Source: Promethearchaeia archaeon (GTDB taxonomy: Archaea > Asgardarchaeota > Lokiarchaeia > Sigyniarchaeales > SOKP01). From it: a stretch of 9,204 nt of DNA. A program made the translations under genes and the position numbers. Under the pieces are notes generated by a model. The model ran no database searches and had not been told where the DNA came from. It saw nothing but the letters and a program-made list of their open reading frames with translations. The stretch lies in assembly GCA_046497275.1 (NCBI GenBank), contig JAWOFX010000005.1, positions 1 through 9,204 of the forward strand, given 5' to 3'. This document shows, piece after piece, positions 1 through 9,204 of the stretch. Position 1 is the stretch's first letter. Each line of letters begins with the position of its first letter.

Positions 1-61
1 CTGAAGGAACGCCATCAATCTCCTCTCTAGCTTCTTGCTTAATTGTATTTTCATTTTTCAC
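1..61 (-). CDS. Possible 5' end of a gene running off the left edge (product unknown)
   Basis: GTG at 61-59 opens a frame to the edge (MKNENTIKQEAREEIDGVPS...), with purine-rich AAGAGGGA about 6 nt upstream and a long AT-rich intergenic region beyond. A second frame from ATG 54-52 (MKIQLSKKLERRLMAFLQ) is also open, so the frame is ambiguous. Confidence 0.35.
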   Translation of the reverse strand, partial: MKNENTIKQEAREEIDGVPS

Positions 62-413
62 GATTTTTCCCTCTTCAAAAATTTGTTAAATATTTTTGAG
101 TAAAATTTGATTTAATTTAAAGTAAATTTTGGTAATCAAATATATTTACTCATCTATTCTTAAAAATATTTTGTTAAAGAAGTAAAAAGCATCTCTCTAC
201 AGTCAACTTAAAAAGATAAAATAGATTTAAACGTCCCTAATTTAAATAAATAAAATTTTGAATCCAAAATTAAAGTATAGAGAATTTTTTTTTATGCAAA
301 CTTATTTTAAATTATTAGAAATTGATAAAACTGAAAACAGATAGTATTAAATACTTTAAAGGTAAGTCTTTAATAAGATTTAATTTCTAATTAACCATTT
401 GGTCGGAAAATTT
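62..413. promoter_or_regulatory. AT-rich intergenic region, probably carrying divergent promoters
   Basis: No ORF of note and many TATA-like words (e.g. TTTAAATA at 241-248). No individual TATA box can be assigned with confidence at this AT content. Confidence 0.35.
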
Positions 414-1259
414 ATGAGGCGTAAAAAAACCCACTTATTAGGAATACTATTGATATTTGGTTTATGTATGTGTACCACAATAATGAATGTTCGAGCAACT
501 ACTTATGATTGTCCAGATATTTCTGTTGGATATACTAAGATCTATAAGGTTACAGTTGTAGATGAGAGTAAACTTGAAACTAGTTTGGAAAATTGGTCAG
601 ATTACATTCAAATAGCTTATGGTGAAAACGCTCATCAATTGAATGCAAGGCAAAAATCTGTAATTATGGGGACAGAATCGGGAGAATTAATAATATCAAT
701 GGAGCCAAATTGGCCAATTTGTAATATTTCTGTAGATGTCTGGAATTGGACAACAGGAGACCCGCCAGAAGTGTCGGGAAATCCAATTTCTGAACATTAT
801 ATTTTAAGAGATCCCATGAATTTGACTTCATATGCACAACAAGGTCTTAATGATGTGACATTTTATAGTTCAGGATACAACATAAATGGAAATAAAGGAT
901 ATTTCCTCAATCAGTTACCATCCAATCCAAAAGATTATCTCGAAGATGAAGAGTTAATATGGGAAGAGAAATGGACTACATCATCTAGAAAAATAATCCA
1001 TAATGCTGTGAGTGGTGATTATGCATTTGCTCAACTAAATTACTTAGATAATTGCACAGAAATATGGTCTTATAACGAAAATGGGATATTGATTAGTTAT
1101 GAAATAGAAGATAAAAATGGTCAAACCGCCTATAGATATGAAATTGAAATAGATACTGGAGATATCCCTGGTTATGAAATCCCAATATTACTCGGGATCA
1201 TGTCCATAACGCTAATAGCTGTAATGGTATTCTTAAAAAAAACTTTAAAAGATTTTTAA
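414..1259 (+). CDS. Secreted, C-terminally anchored protein of unknown function with a Loki-CTERM-like sorting signal
   Basis: N-terminus MRRKK, a hydrophobic stretch and a V-R-A cleavage-like site suggest a Sec signal peptide. The C-terminus is IPGY, about 20 hydrophobic residues, then KK..K (1164-1256), the layout of Loki-CTERM sorting tails. The ORF track starts at TTG 399; ATG 414 is chosen because it begins the basic n-region. The ectodomain is not recognised. Confidence 0.85.
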   Translation: MRRKKTHLLGILLIFGLCMCTTIMNVRATTYDCPDISVGYTKIYKVTVVDESKLETSLENWSDYIQIAYGENAHQLNARQKSVIMGTESGELIISMEPNWPICNISVDVWNWTTGDPPEVSGNPISEHYILRDPMNLTSYAQQGLNDVTFYSSGYNINGNKGYFLNQLPSNPKDYLEDEELIWEEKWTTSSRKIIHNAVSGDYAFAQLNYLDNCTEIWSYNENGILISYEIEDKNGQTAYRYEIEIDTGDIPGYEIPILLGIMSITLIAVMVFLKKTLKDF

Positions 1260-1275
1260 TCCAGCTAAATTCAAA

Positions 1276-1289
1276 TTCTTTTTATTTTT
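1276..1289 (+). terminator. Candidate archaeal oligo(T) terminator
   Basis: TTCTTTTTATTTTT 17 nt after the stop of the secreted-protein gene, in the gap between convergent genes. The local AT richness weakens the call. Confidence 0.35.
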
Positions 1290-1370
1290 AAATTAAAATT
1301 TTAATTAAATTCACTGACTTAAATTTTTTGAGTTTAAAATAAAATATTTTAAAGAATTAAACTGAAGTTA

Positions 1371-2708
1371 TTAAATAAAATCATCTAATGTTCTTTGATT
1401 TCTGATGAAATTAATCAATTTACTATTATGCTGCCACTGCTTTTCATTGACTAATAATCCTTTGCTTAATTTACTAATGGCATCCTCAAAATTGTCTAAG
1501 ATGAATGGTTTAGATTCCTTAAATGCATTTTTAACCGTCTCACGGATTACCCAAACACCTAAAGGCACTACATAACCTGAAGAAACTTCACGAAAGATGA
1601 TGATTCGTGCTTGTCGACGGATCTTATATAAATATTCACATACAGATTTTCGAGCAGCATAATAAGCTCCCGTTATGTTACTTGCGTAATTTTTTCTGCC
1701 TTTGTAAAATTCATAATCTGTCATTATTTGAGGTTTAATATCAAGACTTTTTCCATCCAAAGAGACATTCCATAAAGAATTCGGAGCCCATACTTCATTC
1801 ATTTCGAATGCGAATTTCCCAGGAAAGAGTAAAATCCGAAAATGATTGTCTAAATAAGTTGCCTCAAATATTTTATATTCATTAATCTCTGGAAATCTCT
1901 TTATCTCCTCAATCAATTTTTTTGATATGATATCATCAACCGCTGTAATCGTCCACCGAGTTGGAACTAATTTCCTCTTTTTTTGTTCTCCTAAAAGACC
2001 TGCTGAGAAAACTCTCTGAATAGTTGAGAGGGGAACATCAGTATCCATATAAAGGAATTCTCCCACCGCCTCTTGAGCCTTTAAATCCGTATCGGCTACA
2101 CAATACTCAACTTTCGGATGAACCTTTACATTTTCAGTTATTCTTATCTTATCTGTATATCCAGATGGTCCCATCGGAAGTGAATGATTATCTAACATCA
2201 TTCTTAAACCTAATTGATTAAACCTTGTTTCTGTATCGGTTGGTTGGGCTGCCATTGAAAGAATTTGGGATCGTTCTAACAATCGTTTTTCTTTTAATGG
2301 AGGTGTATTTTTAAGTCTCTTTTCGCCTATTTTAACATTAATATTGAAATTACTCCTTACTAATTTGCTACGGTATAAAATTATTTCCTCCAATTTTTTT
2401 CCGTACCAGAGTTCTGGAGCGTCTAAAATATGATTTTCTGCCTTATTTATGAAGTTTTCTTTAGTAAATTCTGAGAATGGAATAAGTGGTCCTACCGTTA
2501 CTTTAGGATAATTGTATCTTCCTACGAAAAATCCTGGGGGGCTTGCCCCAAAAAGTTCTACATTTTTTAGAGATTTGCCTACATGAAATGGAATGATTGA
2601 TTTCAAAACTGATTTTTTAAGAAGAATTGGACAAGTATTTTTCCCACATAGGAGTTTTCCGCCCTTACACCTTAAACAAATATTAGAATCTGTAGGTGGT
2701 CGAACCAC
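1371..2708 (-). CDS. nreA: Nre family archaeal DNA repair protein (PCNA-interacting)
   Basis: 445 aa with GTG start. N-terminal CxxC-x6-C-x4-C (CLRCKGGKLLCGKNTCP). Nre-like segments SPPGFFVGRYNYPKV, RKLVPTRWTITAVDD, YYAAR and YVVPLGVWVIRETVKNAF. The extreme C-terminus is QRTLDDFI, a PIP-box-like QxxLxxF(F/I). Confidence 0.93.
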   Translation of the reverse strand: MVRPPTDSNICLRCKGGKLLCGKNTCPILLKKSVLKSIIPFHVGKSLKNVELFGASPPGFFVGRYNYPKVTVGPLIPFSEFTKENFINKAENHILDAPELWYGKKLEEIILYRSKLVRSNFNINVKIGEKRLKNTPPLKEKRLLERSQILSMAAQPTDTETRFNQLGLRMMLDNHSLPMGPSGYTDKIRITENVKVHPKVEYCVADTDLKAQEAVGEFLYMDTDVPLSTIQRVFSAGLLGEQKKRKLVPTRWTITAVDDIISKKLIEEIKRFPEINEYKIFEATYLDNHFRILLFPGKFAFEMNEVWAPNSLWNVSLDGKSLDIKPQIMTDYEFYKGRKNYASNITGAYYAARKSVCEYLYKIRRQARIIIFREVSSGYVVPLGVWVIRETVKNAFKESKPFILDNFEDAISKLSKGLLVNEKQWQHNSKLINFIRNQRTLDDFI

Positions 2709-2870
2709 AATATTTCACAAAAATTATGGATGGATTGAATTTAATTTACTTTCTTATTATAAAAAAGCTATAAGTGTTTAAATTTTTAATAATTATATCT
2801 TAAAGGCTTATTAACCCATAATTATCTTAAAAAATTTCAGATATATCTTCTAAAACCTTAGCTTAGACAT

Positions 2871-3989
2871 TTAAGTCTGAGATAATAAATCAATTAATGC
2901 TCGTGGAATCTCTTTATAATCTTCAACAGCGTAAAATTTACCTCGTCCAGCTTTTGCAATCTCTTTACATGTTTCAATACCTCTATCAGCATCATTCTCA
3001 GGCGGCATTCCAATAACATGTAATTTGGGGTATTTTTTGGCGATATTGACGGGATTATCTCCTCTATTATAATTTCCATCGGATATTAGAATTCCGAATT
3101 GATTTCTATGATTTTTTTTAACTTTATTTAATTCTTTTAATCCCTTTTCAAGACCGATATGAATATTTGTAAATCCAACAGCTTCGGAATCAAGGATTTC
3201 ATCAATTAATTTAGTAATTGATTTCTCCTCTTTTATATCCTTAAGAACCATTGCGGTTGAATTGAATAAAATGATAGAGTAATCTTCTTTTTCCATATTA
3301 TAAGCCAAAACTGAAGTTGTAAGTGCGGCATTAAGGAGCAATCTTCCATACATGCTTCCACTTGTATCAAGAACTAAAGCAATCTTTCTTTTTTCTCTCT
3401 GGCGCTTTATCCCATAAATATCGTGATAATTTACGGTTTTCTCCATAATTTTTAATGGATTATGTTGTATTGTCTCATCTAAATCAAATTCAGGCATTCC
3501 AATATGATAATAAGGAATCGTTTTCTTTTTATAACCTCTTATTCCTCGACTAGTTATTTTTAAAGAAGTTTTTAAGATACTTTGTCTCGCCAAACGCCTA
3601 AAAATATTTTTATATTTATCAGAAATAGGTCTTCGAATAAAAAAATAGATCTCAGGCATGATCTCAGGAGATTCATCAGCCTTTTCCGAGAAAAATTCCA
3701 CTCCTTCCCGACAATCTAAAGCATCAGTGGCAGCATATACATTAGATTTCAATAAACCTCTGATAGCTTCAACATTTTTGTGCTCAATTGCCAAATAGGT
3801 GAGATCTCGAATCTCTTTATAATCTAGACTATGTGCTAAGTTTTCATAATAATCTGGTTTCTTTTTCTTTTTTCTGATAATCTCATATTTTAATACTTGT
3901 TTATCTGAAGGAATTTCAGTTCTTCTTACTTGAAGGCGTTTAGCTTTCTCCTCCTCCTCGGTTTCAGCCTCAGAGAAATCATCGATTAT
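2871..3989 (-). CDS. VWA (MIDAS) domain protein, CoxE-like partner of the upstream AAA+ ATPase; 5' end non-canonical
   Basis: Complete MIDAS: LVLDTSGSM (DxSxS at 3354-3368), GFTNI, ILISDG. The ORF track starts it at TTG 3794, but hand translation shows no stop in this frame up to TAA 4004-4002. The extra segment (IIDDFSEAETEEEEKAKRLQVRRTEIPSDKQVLKYEIIRKKKKKPDYYENLAHSLDYKEIRDLTY) looks protein-like. The start is placed tentatively at ATA 3989-3987, overlapping the AAA stop (372 aa). Product confidence is high; start confidence is moderate. Confidence 0.85.
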   Translation of the reverse strand: MIDDFSEAETEEEEKAKRLQVRRTEIPSDKQVLKYEIIRKKKKKPDYYENLAHSLDYKEIRDLTYLAIEHKNVEAIRGLLKSNVYAATDALDCREGVEFFSEKADESPEIMPEIYFFIRRPISDKYKNIFRRLARQSILKTSLKITSRGIRGYKKKTIPYYHIGMPEFDLDETIQHNPLKIMEKTVNYHDIYGIKRQREKRKIALVLDTSGSMYGRLLLNAALTTSVLAYNMEKEDYSIILFNSTAMVLKDIKEEKSITKLIDEILDSEAVGFTNIHIGLEKGLKELNKVKKNHRNQFGILISDGNYNRGDNPVNIAKKYPKLHVIGMPPENDADRGIETCKEIAKAGRGKFYAVEDYKEIPRALIDLLSQT

Positions 3990-4858
3990 TGAAAATCCGA
4001 GTTACTTAACACTTTCAATACGATACTTGAAATAACTTCTTGTTTAGTTTTTGATATACCATCTTCAAGCTCGATTTTATTATATAAAGCCATAATAGCG
4101 GCATCTACCCAAATTTTGGAGCTTTTAGAGTTTTCAGATTGATTGATAATTGCTGCTAAATCAATGCCTCCTCTGATAGAACTGCCTCTTCGAATAGATG
4201 TATTATTTCTTGTTTGATGGATTATTTTTTGAGAGAGATCGGCTAATTCCTCAGCATTACCACTGTTGAGTTCTGCTTCTTTGATAATTATTTTTCTTTC
4301 TTCCTCAGGGTTTTGATAGTCTAATTTTATCCAGATAAATCTATCTTTAATCGCTTCACCAAGGACTGTAACCCCTATATGTGCTGAAGGATTTAAAGTC
4401 GCAATAGTAAAGAAACCCTTTTGAGCATGAACAGTTTTTAGTTTTGGAATTTCTAAAATTTTTTCATCTAAGGCGGTTAATAAGGCATTTTGTGTTATTT
4501 CAGGCATTCTGTTGATTTCATTAATGAATAAACATCCTCCGTGAATCATCGCAGATGTCAATGGACCATATCGGTAAGCATCCTCAACATAGCCTTTTGA
4601 AATAACTAATGGTGGATCCCAATATCCTACTAAATTATGAGTTAATGTATCTTCGCTACAATCAATACGAAAAAAATCCGCATCAAAATAAGAGGAAACC
4701 CCTCTCGCAATCGTAGTCTTTCCAACTCCGACCTCTCCCTCTATTAGGATATTTTTACCAATAGAATGAGCTAGAATAATTTTCTTTAACTCTTCTTCTC
4801 GTCCAATAATTTTATACTTTTGTTGAATCTCTCTTATAGCGTTATCAGTATTATCCAT
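3986..4858 (-). CDS. MoxR/CoxD-like AAA+ ATPase
   Basis: IIGREEEL N-terminal segment, Walker A GEVGVGKT (4715-4738), atypical Walker B CLFINE (4517-4534), sensor I ATLNP, arginine finger AIKDRF and sensor II SIRG. It lies directly upstream of a VWA gene. ATG 4858 (MDNTDN..., GGTG 4 nt upstream) is preferred over the track's TTG 4891. Confidence 0.92.
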   Translation of the reverse strand: MDNTDNAIREIQQKYKIIGREEELKKIILAHSIGKNILIEGEVGVGKTTIARGVSSYFDADFFRIDCSEDTLTHNLVGYWDPPLVISKGYVEDAYRYGPLTSAMIHGGCLFINEINRMPEITQNALLTALDEKILEIPKLKTVHAQKGFFTIATLNPSAHIGVTVLGEAIKDRFIWIKLDYQNPEEERKIIIKEAELNSGNAEELADLSQKIIHQTRNNTSIRRGSSIRGGIDLAAIINQSENSKSSKIWVDAAIMALYNKIELEDGISKTKQEVISSIVLKVLSNSDFQ

Positions 4859-4943
4859 ATGCACCACAATTCTAAAAATGAAACATCTCAAAAAAAATTG
4901 ATTTAACTCCTAGAAAAAAGCTAGTTTTTGTGCAATCTATAAT

Positions 4944-4960
4944 TATTGATTATATCAATA
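4944..4960. promoter_or_regulatory. Operator-like palindrome TATTGAT-N3-ATCAATA beside a TATA-like element
   Basis: Perfect 7-bp inverted repeat, immediately followed by TTAATATA (4961-4968), in the divergent gap between the AAA gene and the MNT gene. Function is inferred. Confidence 0.4.
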
Positions 4961-4983
4961 TTAATATAATTCCAAAATAAATA

Positions 4984-5012
4984 TTAGGAAGAATTATCTA
5001 TTTTATTCCTAA
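4984..5012. repeat. Inverted repeat TTAGGAA-N15-TTCCTAA upstream of the MNT gene
   Basis: Arms at 4984-4990 and 5006-5012 are exact reverse complements and end 26 nt before the MNT start. Confidence 0.45.
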
Positions 5013-5038
5013 GTAATAAGAAGATTGAGAAAAAAACA

Positions 5039-5347
5039 TTGCTAGAGTTAGATAAAGACAAGCTATTAAGTCTTTTAAAGGAAAATAAGGAAAAGTTAAA
5101 AAATTTTCATGTGAGTAAACTTGGGATATTTGGTTCCTTTATCAGAGGAGAAAATACTAAAGATAGTGATATAGATTTTTTAGTAGAGTTTGAAAAAGGT
5201 GAGAAAAATTTTAATAATTTTATTAACTTAGCCTTCTTCTTAGAAAATTTATTAAATAGAAAGATAGACCTTCTAACTATTGAATCTTTAAGCCCTTATA
5301 TGAAATCAGAAATACTTAAGGAGGTATACTTTGAAAAAATCGAATAG
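5039..5347 (+). CDS. mntA: Minimal nucleotidyltransferase (MNT), antitoxin of an MNT-HEPN (MntA/HepT-type) system
   Basis: 102 aa with TTG start. Exact GS-x10-DxD motif ([15 protein letters not shown]) plus typical LEDLL/KIDL-type downstream segments. Overlaps the HEPN gene by 17 nt. Confidence 0.93.
5319..5325 (+). promoter_or_regulatory. Shine-Dalgarno AGGAGGT for the HEPN gene
   Basis: AGGAGGT lies 5 nt before TTG 5331, inside the MNT coding sequence. Confidence 0.7.
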
Positions 5348-5693
5348 AAATTTGGAAAAAATATTACATATTAGAGATGAAATTGAATATTTAGCTAAAA
5401 CCTCAGAAAATCTTTTATATAAAGATTTTATTTCAAATGAAACCTTAAAAAGAGCATTTGTAAGAAGTATTGAAATTATAGGAGAAGCAGTAAAATCAAT
5501 ACCAAATGAATTAAAAAAGAAATATAAGAATATTAAATGGAAAAAAATTGCCGGTATGAGGGATAAATTAATACACCAATATTTTGGCGTGGATTATGAT
5601 ATAGTTTGGGATGTTGTGGAGAATTATATTCCAAACTTAAAGAAAGATATTGATAAAATAGTTGTAAACGAGAATCAAAAGGTAAAAGAATAG
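5331..5693 (+). CDS. hepT: HEPN-domain (DUF86/HepT-like) ribonuclease toxin
   Basis: 120 aa. R-x4-H-x-Y motif (RDKLIHQY), plus [20 protein letters not shown] and [11 protein letters not shown] typical of DUF86. Directly downstream of and overlapping the MNT gene. Confidence 0.92.
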
Positions 5694-5755
5694 ATTTGAA
5701 AATATTTAAAAATTTATAAAATCGTTAATTCTTCATATTTTTTAATGAAATATTA

Positions 5756-5797
5756 TTCTCTAAGGTTAAAATAAATATATAATATTTCCTAAGAGAA
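5756..5797 (+). promoter_or_regulatory. Candidate leaderless promoter: TATA-like core bracketed by a 10-bp imperfect inverted repeat
   Basis: TTCTCTAAGG (5756-5765) and CCTAAGAGAA (5788-5797) match 9/10 as an inverted repeat. The spacer contains AATATATA (5774-5781), about 20-25 nt before ATG 5800. Confidence 0.4.
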
Positions 5798-5799
5798 AT

Positions 5800-6177
5800 A
5801 TGAAACCAAATGATGAAATCCAAATGAGTCCTTGTGGATTATTTTGTAATAAATGTTCGCTATTTTTAGTTCCTTATGACAAAAAGGCAGCTAATGAAGT
5901 TTTAATGTGGTTCAAGAATGAAAATTGGTACGAAAATGATCAAAAAGTCGAGGAACTCATCCAAAACGAAGATTATTGCGAAGGATGTAGAAGTTCAAGG
6001 GAAAGATTACATTGGTCTTCAAACTGCCAAATCTTAAATTGTTGTGTCGATAAAAAAGAATTAGAATTCTGCAATGAATGTAAAGAATTTCCTTGTGAAA
6101 TATATAAGGATTGGGTTAGAGAGAGCGAAATGCATCAAAAAACATTTGAAGCCTTACAGAAAATGAATCAAAAATAG
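5800..6177 (+). CDS. Cys-rich DUF3795-like protein (putative metal or Fe-S binding)
   Basis: 125 aa with 11 Cys in the pattern SPCGLFCNKC...CEGC...C.I..CC...FCNECKEFPC, which matches the DUF3795 pattern as I recall it. Confidence 0.8.
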   Translation: MKPNDEIQMSPCGLFCNKCSLFLVPYDKKAANEVLMWFKNENWYENDQKVEELIQNEDYCEGCRSSRERLHWSSNCQILNCCVDKKELEFCNECKEFPCEIYKDWVRESEMHQKTFEALQKMNQK

Positions 6178-6209
6178 GGTAAATTATAAATTATAATCTT
6201 ATAAATAAA

Positions 6210-7472
6210 TTAAATGGGTAATAGTTTAACCAATATTTTCTCTCCTGCTTTTAATCCTTCTTGATCTTTTGATATTTCTACTATACCATCACTATTGGTC
6301 AAAGAAGTGATTATTCCAGAACCTTTCAATCTCACTGATCGTGCTATTATCTTATCCTCTTTAGTCTCCAAATATACTCTTAAATAATGTAAATAACCCA
6401 TTCTACTGACTGGTATATCTCTATCTATTTCTGCTATTATTTCTTTTCTTGGATCAGTTTTTTTCGCACTCATCATTTTCCGTATTGCCGGTCCAGCGAA
6501 TTTTAAGAATCCTACATATGCTGCTACGGGTGTTCCTGGTAAACAAAAGATTAGAGTATCATTTTTATGAGCTATTAAAATTGGTTCACCTGGTCTCATG
6601 GCAACACCATGAGTTAAAACTTTCGCATTTTCATTCACAACTTCAGGGAGATAATCTTGTGTTCCAACTGATGTACCACCCGTAAAGAGAACCATATCAG
6701 ATGATTGAATTGCTTGGAGTAAATTTTTTGTAATTAGAGATTTATTATCTTTTAGAGTAGCTGCTGAAATTACTTCCCCACCATAAGTTCTCACCAAATT
6801 AGCAATCATAGGAGTGTTGGAGTTATAAATCTGACTTTTACCTAATGGTTCACCAATTTCAACTAATTCATCTCCAGTTGCAAAAACAGATACTTTTGGT
6901 CTTATAAATACTTGAATCTTTTGAATACCTTGAGAACTAAGCAATGCAATATGTTCTGCCTTGAGTTCTGTTCCTTTTTTGAGAATGATTTCTCCTTTAT
7001 GAATATCCTCGCCTTGTTTTGCGACATTTTTTCCTGGGGCGACTGGGTTATATATTTTGATCATATTATTTCCTTCCATTTCAGTGTCTTCGATTTTAAC
7101 TACTGCATCTGCCCCTTCAGGAATTACTGCTCCCGTAGAGATTCTTATAGCTTCCCCTCTATTTATGGATAAATCGGAAGCTTCTCCGATTTCTATTTTT
7201 CCTGCCTTTTTAACATATTTAGGACTATTAGGGGATGCTTCAAACGTATCTTCCGCAATTAAAGCATAACCATCCATAGCGGATTTATCAAATCCAGGAA
7301 CATCAATCCTGCTTTCTATGTCTTTAGCAATTATTCGATTTAACGAAATAGGAGTATCAATCTCTTCTGTACTAACAGTTTTAGTATTCAAAAAAAGTAA
7401 ATCTAACGCATCTTCAACTGAAGTTAGTTTTGCAAAGCCAATTTTTCTTAATCGCTCGACCATGTTGATCAT
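6210..7472 (-). CDS. moeA: Molybdopterin molybdenumtransferase MoeA (gephyrin E-domain family), copy 2
   Basis: 420 aa. VPGFDKSAMDGYA, ISTGAVIPEGADAVV, ATGDEL, IYNSN, FTGGTSVG, MRPGEP, CLPGTP and GSGIITSL. ATG 7472 overlaps the moaB stop as ATGA. ATG 7463, with GAGG upstream, is an alternative start. Confidence 0.95.
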   Translation of the reverse strand: MINMVERLRKIGFAKLTSVEDALDLLFLNTKTVSTEEIDTPISLNRIIAKDIESRIDVPGFDKSAMDGYALIAEDTFEASPNSPKYVKKAGKIEIGEASDLSINRGEAIRISTGAVIPEGADAVVKIEDTEMEGNNMIKIYNPVAPGKNVAKQGEDIHKGEIILKKGTELKAEHIALLSSQGIQKIQVFIRPKVSVFATGDELVEIGEPLGKSQIYNSNTPMIANLVRTYGGEVISAATLKDNKSLITKNLLQAIQSSDMVLFTGGTSVGTQDYLPEVVNENAKVLTHGVAMRPGEPILIAHKNDTLIFCLPGTPVAAYVGFLKFAGPAIRKMMSAKKTDPRKEIIAEIDRDIPVSRMGYLHYLRVYLETKEDKIIARSVRLKGSGIITSLTNSDGIVEISKDQEGLKAGEKILVKLLPI

Positions 7473-8011
7473 TCCTCTTTATTTATAAGATAACACATAT
7501 GGGCCAGTTCGGGTAATATTAGATCATGTAACGCTATTTTTACGGCGTTCGGTGATCCCGGTAAAAGAAATACTGCTTTTTCTCTAATTTTACCCCCTAT
7601 CGCTCTTGAAAGCATAGCTGCTGAACCGATTTCTTTAAAAGAAAGATATCGAAATAATTCTCCGAAACCAGGAATTATTTTTTCAAATTTTGGTTGAATG
7701 GTCTCATAAGTAATATCTCTTAGCGATAATCCCGTTCCTCCACTGAATATAATAGAATCTATGTTTTTTTTTTCTAAGAATTCATTCAAGGCAGAATTAA
7801 TATGTTCAACCGAATCTGGAATAATTTTAGTAAACTTTAAAGATATTTTTTCCTCTTTATAGAGTAATTCTTGAACAAGTGGAATAGTTTTATCGGATGT
7901 GTTTTTTTGATCCTTTATTTCATCATATCGAGAAGTGCTAACAATAATTAAGGCAATATTTAATTGCTTTTTCTCATCTGCTTGATGTTTATGTTTTTCA
8001 TGAACTTTCAT
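7469..8011 (-). CDS. moaB: MoaB/MogA-family molybdopterin adenylyltransferase (gephyrin G-domain family)
   Basis: 180 aa. IIVSTSR, IIPD, FSGGTGLSLRDIT, IPGFGELFR, AMLSRA and LLPGSPNAV. Both acidic catalytic-type positions (IPD, RD) are present. Confidence 0.94.
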   Translation of the reverse strand: MKVHEKHKHQADEKKQLNIALIIVSTSRYDEIKDQKNTSDKTIPLVQELLYKEEKISLKFTKIIPDSVEHINSALNEFLEKKNIDSIIFSGGTGLSLRDITYETIQPKFEKIIPGFGELFRYLSFKEIGSAAMLSRAIGGKIREKAVFLLPGSPNAVKIALHDLILPELAHMCYLINKEE

Positions 8012-8015
8012 AATT

Positions 8016-8022
8016 TCACCTC
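8016..8022 (-). promoter_or_regulatory. Shine-Dalgarno GAGGTGA for moaB
   Basis: The minus strand reads GAGGTGA 4 nt upstream of ATG 8011, in the 24-nt gap after the moeA stop. This is the archaeal-type SD. Confidence 0.75.
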
Positions 8023-8035
8023 TAAATTCATTTAA

Positions 8036-9204
8036 TCAATAAGTATAAAAGACTTTTTTGTCTCCTTTTTCTACTATTTCTTCTAGTTCTTCAATTTCAA
8101 TATATCCATCGGAATAAAATAAGGTGCTTATGGCTTCTGAGCCTGTTTTAATCGGAAATATTTTTTGAACGCCATCTACTTCTCTCAACTCCACGGCTTT
8201 AAAATGATGTCTTCCGATAGGGCTATAGATTCTTTCACCGATTTCTAGTTCCTCAGCATTTTTGCCTCTTAGGGGATATCCAGACAACCTCCTCAAAAAA
8301 TCATCAATAAAAACATAAAAGCAACTTAAAGCCGATGTTGGATATCCAGGGAGTATGAAGATTATCTTATTTTGAAGCTTGGCGAAAATCAATGGCTTAC
8401 CTGGCTTTATTTTTATCCCGTGTACTTGTACTTCAATATTCTCGAAGGTATCTAATACTCTTACTCCTAAATCACCCTCTCCCTTAGAAGTCCCTCCGGA
8501 TAAGATTACTAAATCACTCTCCTTAAGTCCTTTCTCAATTATTTGTTTTAATTGTTTAAAATCATCTTTTACGATCCCGAGATAATTTACTTCTGAGCCT
8601 GTATTAGAAATCGCTTGTTTCAAGACAATAGAATTAATATCATAAATTTGTCCGATCTCTAAGTCTGATGTTTCATTTGTCACGAGCTCGCTACCGGTAC
8701 TAATTAAGCTTATTTTAGGTTTTTGATATACTGGAACTGTTTGAATTCCACAAGCAGCAAGAATACCCATCGTAGGAAGATCTACTAAAGTATCCTCTTT
8801 AATTATTGTTTCTCCCTTCTTAACATCGTGTCCGATTTCAATGATATAGGTACTGGGAGTAACAGCTTGAGAAATCGAAATGATATTATCTTTCTTTTGA
8901 GAATATTCCACAATTACCACCGCATTAGCTCCTTCGGGAATGGGTGCGCCCGTTGCGACATACGCACATTCCCCCTTTTTTATTACTTTTTGTGGGATAT
9001 CTCCCGCTTCAATGACTTCAATTTGTTTGAGTGAAATTAAATTGTCTTCCTCAGCTCCAAATGTATCTTCTGCTTTTACGGCAAATCCATCCATTCGAGA
9101 TTTTCTAAAATGCGGTACATCAATAGGACTTTTCACATCCATTGAAATCTTTCTGTTAAAACTATTTTCTAAGTTTACTTCTTCTGAACCTAATTTTAAG
9201 GGAG
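8036..9204 (-). CDS. moeA: Molybdopterin molybdenumtransferase MoeA, copy 1 (5' end outside window)
   Basis: VPHFRKSRMDGFAV, VATGAPIPEGANAVV, STGSEL, IYDIN, LSGGTSKGEGD, IKPGKP and LPGYPTSA. The track starts at ATG 9142, but the frame is open to the window edge (...PLKLGSEEVNLENSFNRKISMDV), so the gene is truncated here. No C-terminal periplasmic-binding extension is present. Confidence 0.95.
   Translation of the reverse strand, partial: PLKLGSEEVNLENSFNRKISMDVKSPIDVPHFRKSRMDGFAVKAEDTFGAEEDNLISLKQIEVIEAGDIPQKVIKKGECAYVATGAPIPEGANAVVIVEYSQKKDNIISISQAVTPSTYIIEIGHDVKKGETIIKEDTLVDLPTMGILAACGIQTVPVYQKPKISLISTGSELVTNETSDLEIGQIYDINSIVLKQAISNTGSEVNYLGIVKDDFKQLKQIIEKGLKESDLVILSGGTSKGEGDLGVRVLDTFENIEVQVHGIKIKPGKPLIFAKLQNKIIFILPGYPTSALSCFYVFIDDFLRRLSGYPLRGKNAEELEIGERIYSPIGRHHFKAVELREVDGVQKIFPIKTGSEAISTLFYSDGYIEIEELEEIVEKGDKKVFYTY

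Follow-up and report, generated by a model that had tools for sequence, protein, structure and literature searches.

A probable programmed −1 frameshift linking a MoxR-class AAA+ ATPase to a VWA domain in Asgard archaea

In chlD genes, an AAA+ module and a VWA module are linked by −1 frameshifting, with measured efficiencies of 10–63% at poly-A runs in bacteria and methanogens (Antonov et al. 2013, PMC3711429; PMC9227772). In a related ATPase system that uses separate proteins, a NorQ hexamer binds one NorD, giving a 6:1 complex (PMC9976466). Here we analyse a 9,204-nucleotide (nt) stretch of a Promethearchaeia archaeon of the Asgard phylum (the window; assembly GCA_046497275.1, contig JAWOFX010000005.1, positions 1 to 9,204), which carries on its minus strand a frame for a MoxR-class AAA+ ATPase followed by an overlapping frame for a VWA protein. 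Judging from comparative sequence data, the two frames probably constitute one recoded gene, in which a programmed −1 frameshift at the heptamer G_GAU_UUU would yield both a 290-amino-acid (aa) ATPase and a 662-aa fusion protein. Full-text literature searches returned no report of frameshifting in Asgard MoxR/VWA genes and, to our knowledge, few programmed frameshifts have been documented in archaea.

The ATPase open reading frame (ORF) occupies 4858..3986 of the minus strand, starts at ATG 4858 with GGTG 5' of it, and encodes 290 aa with the C-terminus SNSDFQ. It ends AAC TCG GAT TTT CAA TAA, the stop TAA lying at 3988..3986, and the junction reads TCG GAT TTT CAA TAA TCG ATG ATT TC. The VWA frame is −1 relative to the ATPase frame and remains open from 4001 to its stop at 2873..2871. 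The first ATG, GTG or TTG in this frame is TTG 3794 (3792..3794), codon 69 from the frame top and the spurious start of a 307-aa gene call, which leaves above it a start-less N-terminal extension of 65 codons (3795..3991). The ATA at 3989..3987 shares bases with the ATPase stop, and G_GAT_TTT (3998..3992) lies in phase with the ATPase frame, where GAT encodes Asp and TTT encodes Phe. A preliminary description of the stretch had this anatomy (frames, stop overlap, heptamer and missing start) right in every detail and offered three explanations for it: reinitiation at AUA, which it favoured, a −1 slip giving a 662-aa fusion, and the loss of one G through mutation or assembly error.

Asgard metagenome-assembled genomes (MAGs) contain 431 close homologues of the VWA protein, and our close set comprises 80 loci from distinct species genomes, 79 of which could be anchored for frame. 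Their junctions are nearly letter-identical to that of the window, a recurrence well beyond what chance would give. In all 79 anchored loci the VWA frame is −1 and overlaps the ATPase ORF, mostly by 16 nt, with no conserved start of its own. The junction (3975..4001) is also spanned by one DNA contig from a public run and by two contigs from metatranscriptome libraries (X9 and X10), all reading as the window does with no indel and no joint, though assembled contigs can hide minor RNA forms and the two library contigs may stem from a transcript or from DNA. An assembly error or indel at the junction is ruled out by the 79 independent assemblies and these three contigs, which carry the identical junction, and the suggested loss of a G is thereby refuted; the colinearity of the RNA-library contigs with DNA counts as further support for frameshifting. 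Among relatives, the distance from the ORF top down to the first canonical start in the VWA frame ranges between 9 and 121 codons, with no conserved position, and the called proteins are 307–367 aa long, which bears out the expectation that gene callers truncate the protein. Homologues do not share a start near 3794. Instead, the extension is conserved as protein across the phylum in the homologue alignment, with entropies at codon positions 1, 2 and 3 of 0.61, 0.40 and 1.19 bits for codons 10–70, close to the 0.59, 0.29 and 1.29 bits of the VWA body; the first nine codons of the frame are more constrained (0.31, 0.18 and 0.30 bits). By this codon-position pattern, the 65-codon extension is translated in the VWA frame, and since it evolves as VWA-frame coding sequence, translation must enter that frame at the junction. 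Two genomes of the same family (G160:C95:56489-57607 and G162:C68:939-2057) have one in-frame TGA within the VWA match.

The junction is conserved beyond protein-coding needs. Counting from T 3985, the first base past the stop, the ATPase ORF has an ordinary three-base periodicity with a wobble entropy of 1.2–1.9 bits up to position −13, and entropy then falls to about zero at all codon positions from −12 to +12. The result is a 25-nt block (3997..3973), essentially invariant in both frames, which takes in the heptamer, CAA, the stop and TCGATGATTTCTC, and which occurs once in the 3.85-Mb genome even when up to 3 mismatches are allowed. The wobble T of GAT and that of TTT are invariant in the close loci, and the block varies only at a few positions, where the change (CAA/CAG/CGA/TAA or TAA/TAG) is synonymous or neutral for the ATPase frame. 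The heptamer reads GGATTTT in 65 of the 80 loci, AGATTTT in 11, TGATTTT in 2, and GAATTTT and AAATTTT in 1 each, and the stop follows the slippery codon directly in 9. An invariant ATG at 3982..3980, in the ATPase frame, was rejected as a start, being a by-product of GAT GAT with an ORF of just 5–33 codons. Duplex searches 400–500 nt either side of the block found no long-range RNA partner at a conserved position. The 3' end of the window genome's 16S rRNA is absent, the gene being cut by the contig end, so a relative's 16S was used; against its 3' tail, GGAUCACCUCC, the block shows weak complementarity through GAUUU. The 16S match of the window genome itself (G000:C106:3345-4170, L082) covers model positions 4–828 only. 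In the complete relative G002 just a 124-nt 3' fragment fits the small-subunit rRNA model (G002:C1:871810-871932, L083), and G001 gives none; such patchy matches may reflect insertions in Asgard rRNA genes or the limits of the search filter.

More distant relatives bear most directly on the choice between the models. An exhaustive search returned 722 homologues, and the VWA protein has a homologue in 273 of 400 genomes from the phylum. Further junctions were read at 7 loci reached through distant proteins, at 20 from eight other families and at 26 from fifteen families; the other families amount to about 20 Asgard families at 35–53% identity. Over all 134 loci, the VWA frame overlaps in −1 without a conserved start of its own in 126, is +1 in 7 and in frame in 1, and the ATPase stop lies 0 or 1 codon past the slippery codon in 119 of 122. 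An in-phase heptamer stands 0–1 codon before this stop in nearly all −1 loci, the exceptions being four close-family loci mis-framed by the detection pipeline. These heptamers include G_GAU_UUU, A_GAU_UUU, A_AAU_UUU/C, U_UUU_UUC, U_UUU_UUA, G_GGU_UUU, C_CCU_UUU, A_AAC_CCU, G_GGC_CCU and C_CAU_UUU, and most other families have a strictly canonical one at the homologous place. The encoded residues vary (D, N, H, P, G or R, then F or P) while the slippery pattern stays constant. When the last three sense codons of 114 distinct loci were counted, a strict X_XXY_YYZ was in phase at the junction in 22.8%, against 2.5% over the remainder of the ATPase ORF and 0.4% at the junction when read out of phase; for the relaxed pattern, X1 = X2 plus YYY, the figures are 81.6%, 7.4% and 6.6%, respectively. 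Moreover, X1, which occupies a wobble position of the codon before, varies together with the P-site codon: of 17 loci with AAU, 16 have A at X1, and of 88 with GAU or GGU, 72 have G. Because the in-phase slippery pattern is kept across families while letters and residues change, the −1 slip of the preliminary description, with its 662-aa fusion, fits the comparative data best.

Naturally fused relatives add to this support. Many single-chain AAA-VWA proteins of 560–713 aa exist. In one of 713 aa (P0123), the alignment with the ATPase extends exactly to the ..DF end of the latter, and the DNA at this point is GAT TTT TTT CGT. Some families differ at the junction. In L121–L124 (family f18) and L091, the ATPase ends AAG TTT TTT CGG ... 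TGA and the VWA frame is +1, with a TTG at the very top of the VWA ORF and a 26-nt overlap, which could represent an ordinary TTG start or a +1/T-run slippage variant. L132 (f24) and L133 (f21) also have a +1 VWA frame, with no start for at least 70 codons. Most genomes of family f1 contain a second, far weaker VWA match (E about 1e-18 to 1e-20), which in G073 and G012 lies within a 624–643-aa open frame, so that a distinct fused AAA-VWA paralogue may coexist.

Both predicted products belong to recognisable families. The upstream protein matches Pfam AAA_5 (8.6e-20) and AAA_3 (3.6e-18), which places it among the MoxR-class ATPases, and its closest single-domain relatives in the PDB are the MoxR structure 2r44 (53.9 bits) and NorQ (49.9 bits). 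Midasin was rejected as the nearest relative: it ranks first in the PDB (E 7e-29) because six weak domain matches, the best of 33.5 bits, are summed, and 2r44 and NorQ are closer per domain. A ChlI/ChlD-type module is not indicated either, the Pfam family Mg_chelatase (PF01078) matching residues 27–66 only (E 1.7e-4) and the BchD-ChlD model TIGR02031 scoring 19.5 bits against a cut-off of 499. The downstream protein matches Pfam VWA (2.1e-10) and has an intact DxSxS motif, with the residues of the metal ion-dependent adhesion site (MIDAS), D210, S212 and S214, invariant; the locus thus has the composition of a MoxR AAA+/VWA pair, in which an AAA_5/AAA_3 ATPase precedes a MIDAS-bearing VWA protein. 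A sequence search of the PDB with the VWA protein gave no hit at E 0.01. The AlphaFold model of this protein (predicted local distance difference test score 87) predicts a disordered acidic linker (residues 1–28), helices (31–148) and the VWA domain (156–373), and a fold search with this model returned generic VWA matches together with the NorD VWA domain from NorQ-NorD complexes.

We propose the following mechanism. Most ribosomes would terminate at TAA 3988..3986 and release the 290-aa MoxR-class ATPase, while a fraction would slip back by one base on G_GAU_UUU (3998..3992), tRNA-Phe re-pairing from UUU to UUU and tRNA-Asp from GAU to GGA. The shifted ribosomes would then read TCA ATA ATC GAT GAT and continue in the VWA frame, from TCA 3991..3989 through 373 codons to the stop (3991..2871). 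The product would be a 662-aa protein (289 + 373 aa) consisting of the ATPase, an acidic linker, a helical domain and the VWA domain, with NSDF joined to SIIDDF at the junction and an expected trans-frame peptide ending in ...NSDFSIIDDFSEAETEEEEK. The invariant sequence past the heptamer and a stem-loop behind it presumably tune the shift. With a fixed ratio of short to long product, free ATPase subunits would presumably form a ring that has about one VWA domain tethered to it, and the binding of a single NorD by the NorQ hexamer provides the rationale for such a fixed minority of the fusion product.

Downstream structure was examined in the window and across the alignment. In the minimum free energy fold of the window, a candidate stem-loop (3978..3951) forms between the pyrimidine arm UUUCUCU (3978..3972) and a GA-rich 3' arm (3957..3951), with inner GG/CC pairs, so the weak hairpin previously suggested to follow the heptamer is present on folding. 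For the window's family we derived a stem-loop model composed of UCGA/UUGA, UCUCU/AGAGA, a GA/GA internal loop and GGA/UCC. When applied to the 80 close loci, 91.6% of cells are paired, compared with 30–59% when the model is slid, and five pairs are changed on both sides; the GAG codons of the 3' arm have a fixed wobble base. RNAalifold predicts no more than part of the stem and an AU hairpin of 4 bp across the heptamer, with a total of −2.6 kcal/mol. The 75-nt downstream segments have a mean folding z-score of −0.59, with 4 of 30 below −2, and global stability is therefore no strong argument. Many other families have local hairpins of unrelated sequence 6–11 nt past the heptamer, often GGAGG...CCUCC. 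Outside the window's family, in L098, L109, L125–L128, L090, L134 and others, the hairpin about 10 nt past the heptamer is built from a GGAGG-rich and a CCUCC-like arm, and on its 3' side comes CCGATGA(C/A), a widely conserved motif coding for S/P-D-D/E. The TCGATGAT of the window's family appears homologous to this motif, shifted up against the stop.

Several observations weigh against programmed frameshifting. G_GAU_UUU is non-canonical, with perfect A-site re-pairing and imperfect re-pairing of GAU to GGA in the P site, and 13 of the 80 close loci have A or U at X1. Part of the conservation of D/N-F at the C-terminus of the ATPase is due to constraint on the protein. The fold energy of the window is no better than that of shuffled sequence (z = +0.15), the clearest hairpin of the family starts 14 nt past the heptamer, or 6 nt if the 4-bp outer helix is counted, and in the window this outer helix has just 2 bp; a stimulatory structure would be expected 5–9 nt downstream. 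A stop within one codon of the heptamer nearly everywhere is unneeded for pure frameshifting and suits termination-coupled models, and in some relatives the junction itself offers a start that could be used, namely ATGA in L090, TTGA where the ATPase ends UUU UGA, GTG in L089, and a Shine-Dalgarno sequence followed by ATG in L085.

These last points bring in termination-reinitiation, or another form of coupled non-canonical initiation, in which ribosomes would restart on AUA 3989..3987 or on the next AUC, the block would act as the restart signal, and a separate 372-aa VWA protein would result. Overlaps of the ATGA type give a −1 frame automatically, and the genuine ATGA of L090, at the homologous position, means that the overlap may be ancestral, with ATAA a decayed ATGA. 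The constant closeness of stop and junction, the TTGA overlaps, the GGA 6 nt upstream of AUA, the weak complementarity of GAUUU to the 16S 3' tail, the hairpin 11–13 nt beyond AUA, and the retention of AUA or AUC in every one of the 80 close loci all count in its favour. No single start is conserved, however. Precisely at the rare variable sites of the otherwise frozen block, AUA becomes GUA in 13 of 80 loci and AUC becomes GUC or CUC in 6, and in the other families the VWA-frame codon over the stop is NUA (AUA, CUA, GUA or UUA); with any N allowed, no near-cognate start is conserved. A conserved start overlapping or adjoining the stop is found neither in the window, which has ATA, nor in the 80 close loci or the other families, ATGA occurring only in L090. 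Reinitiation also leaves unexplained why X_XXY_YYZ is kept in phase through at least ten heptamers and why X1 tracks the P-site codon. Further, in L117, whose stop lies six codons past the heptamer, the VWA-frame residues upstream of that stop (FFRREEI) are conserved and match those of L118. The preference of the preliminary description for reinitiation at AUA is weakened by these data, and we consider it unlikely.

Other routes into the VWA frame have far less in their favour. It is conceivable that, in the window's family, peptidyl-tRNA-Phe leaves GAU-UUU (3997..3992) and lands on GAU-UUC (3980..3975), a short bypass that would join NSDF to SEAE without SIIDD. The two GAUUU(U/C) copies stand 17 nt apart (17 = 3n−1) and are both within the invariant block, and the take-off codon is directly followed by a stop in the 9 loci mentioned above; yet most loci have the sense codon CAA there, and other families have canonical −1 heptamers and no matching landing codon. 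As bypassing is a rare process and a one-base slip explains the same data, we regard it as highly improbable. Restoration of the frame at the RNA level, by transcriptional slippage on the T run, by editing or by removal of a small spliced segment, could be imagined from the T6–T7 runs at the junction in relatives (L091, the f18 loci and P0123, with T7). The run in the window has just four T, though, the RNA-library contigs X9 and X10 cross the junction unchanged (with the limit that contigs hide minor forms), and neither a conserved long-range partner nor a fold resembling a bulge-helix-bulge was seen, by-eye inspection for such an intron finding no conserved flanking helices; this, too, is very unlikely. 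A VWA protein starting at an internal canonical codon such as TTG 3794, with the upstream frame untranslated or the decaying remnant of a fused gene, would match what gene callers pick. It is contradicted by the body-like codon-position pattern of the extension, its conservation as protein across the phylum and the unconserved start positions, and we consider it extremely unlikely. An internal promoter or leaderless start was dropped as a candidate in the absence of a conserved downstream start codon.

Programmed frameshifting at the heptamer is thus our preferred explanation, and a further reading can be formulated, which we regard as speculative and on balance improbable. Recoding in the window's family might rely on the frozen 25-nt linear element instead of a plain heptamer and hairpin, with the shift setting a ratio of about 5:1 between free and VWA-tethered ATPase and hence a ring with one MIDAS arm. 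The element might act by stop-codon-dependent slippage, by a 17-nt hop, or by base-pairing of its two GAUUU copies with the 3' tail of the 16S rRNA. If true, the element would be a type of archaeal stimulator not yet described, and the ring would be a split-gene analogue of the midasin layout.

The surroundings of the locus suggest no obvious client. An archaeal Nre gene (Nre_N + Nre_C; 1371-2708, minus strand) lies directly downstream of the VWA gene, and the neighbours vary between loci (DUF5981 and CarS-like elsewhere), with no conserved client evident. On the other side, an MNT nucleotidyltransferase (PF01909) and a HepT-like RNase (PF01934) at 5039-5693 on the plus strand, overlapping by 17 nt, make up a module that resembles type VII toxin-antitoxin systems and separates the AAA/VWA locus from molybdopterin genes. 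The latter (6210-9142, minus strand) comprise a MoaB-like MoCF_biosynth gene between two MoeA paralogues; the ORFs 7469-8011 and 6210-7472 share an ATGA, an ordinary coupling overlap that contrasts with the ATAA junction.

If the frameshift is real, much of the Asgard phylum would share it, given the presence of the gene in 273 of 400 genomes and the −1 frame in nearly all loci examined. The slippery heptamers and stimulators of the different families would then be a natural series in which to study frameshifting on ribosomes near the eukaryotic lineage, and the chlD principle, in which one gene supplies an ATPase ring subunit and a VWA-bearing variant in a fixed ratio, would extend to the MoxR chaperone class. 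As a practical matter, hundreds of MAGs carry a mis-annotated VWA protein, shortened by 10–70 residues and never given as a fusion, which affects orthology, structure prediction and proteomic databases.

The locus shares features with four described arrangements and departs from each. With ATGA/TAATG coupling it has in common a four-base stop/start-like overlap (here ATAA) and the −1 frame, with a real ATGA in L090, whereas the overlap in the window contains no start codon and the overlapping codon varies freely among relatives. Classical −1 cassettes (dnaX, insertion sequence elements, viral U_UUU_UUA) combine an in-phase X_XXY_YYZ, a short spacer and a downstream stem-loop to give two products in a fixed ratio, as the proposed site would, and G_GAU_UUU is itself known as a −1 slippery heptamer of some plant RNA viruses; the window's family differs in its imperfect heptamer, 25-nt invariant linear block, weak and distant hairpin, and stop 0–1 codon away. 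The domain families, the gene order and the intact DxSxS are those of NorQ/NorD, CbbQ/CbbO and RavA/ViaA. Such MoxR/VWA pairs consist of two separately initiated genes, whereas here recoding appears to give access to a start-less VWA frame, and the vicinity of the locus shows no evident client enzyme. The frameshifted chlD genes, whose arrangement occurs in bacteria and archaea, encode a ChlI/ChlD-type ATPase (Pfam Mg_chelatase) and shift at poly-A runs, in contrast to the MoxR-class ATPase (AAA_5/AAA_3) and the U-based heptamers at the very end of the ATPase ORF described here, in Asgard hosts and with no chelatase H/N subunit nearby. In other respects the two run parallel: both are annotated as two adjacent genes, an AAA+ frame followed by a linker-VWA frame in −1; both have in-frame fused homologues with an AAA-linker-VWA architecture; and in both, as we propose for the Asgard gene, termination would give the small ATPase subunit and a −1 shift the AAA-VWA subunit.

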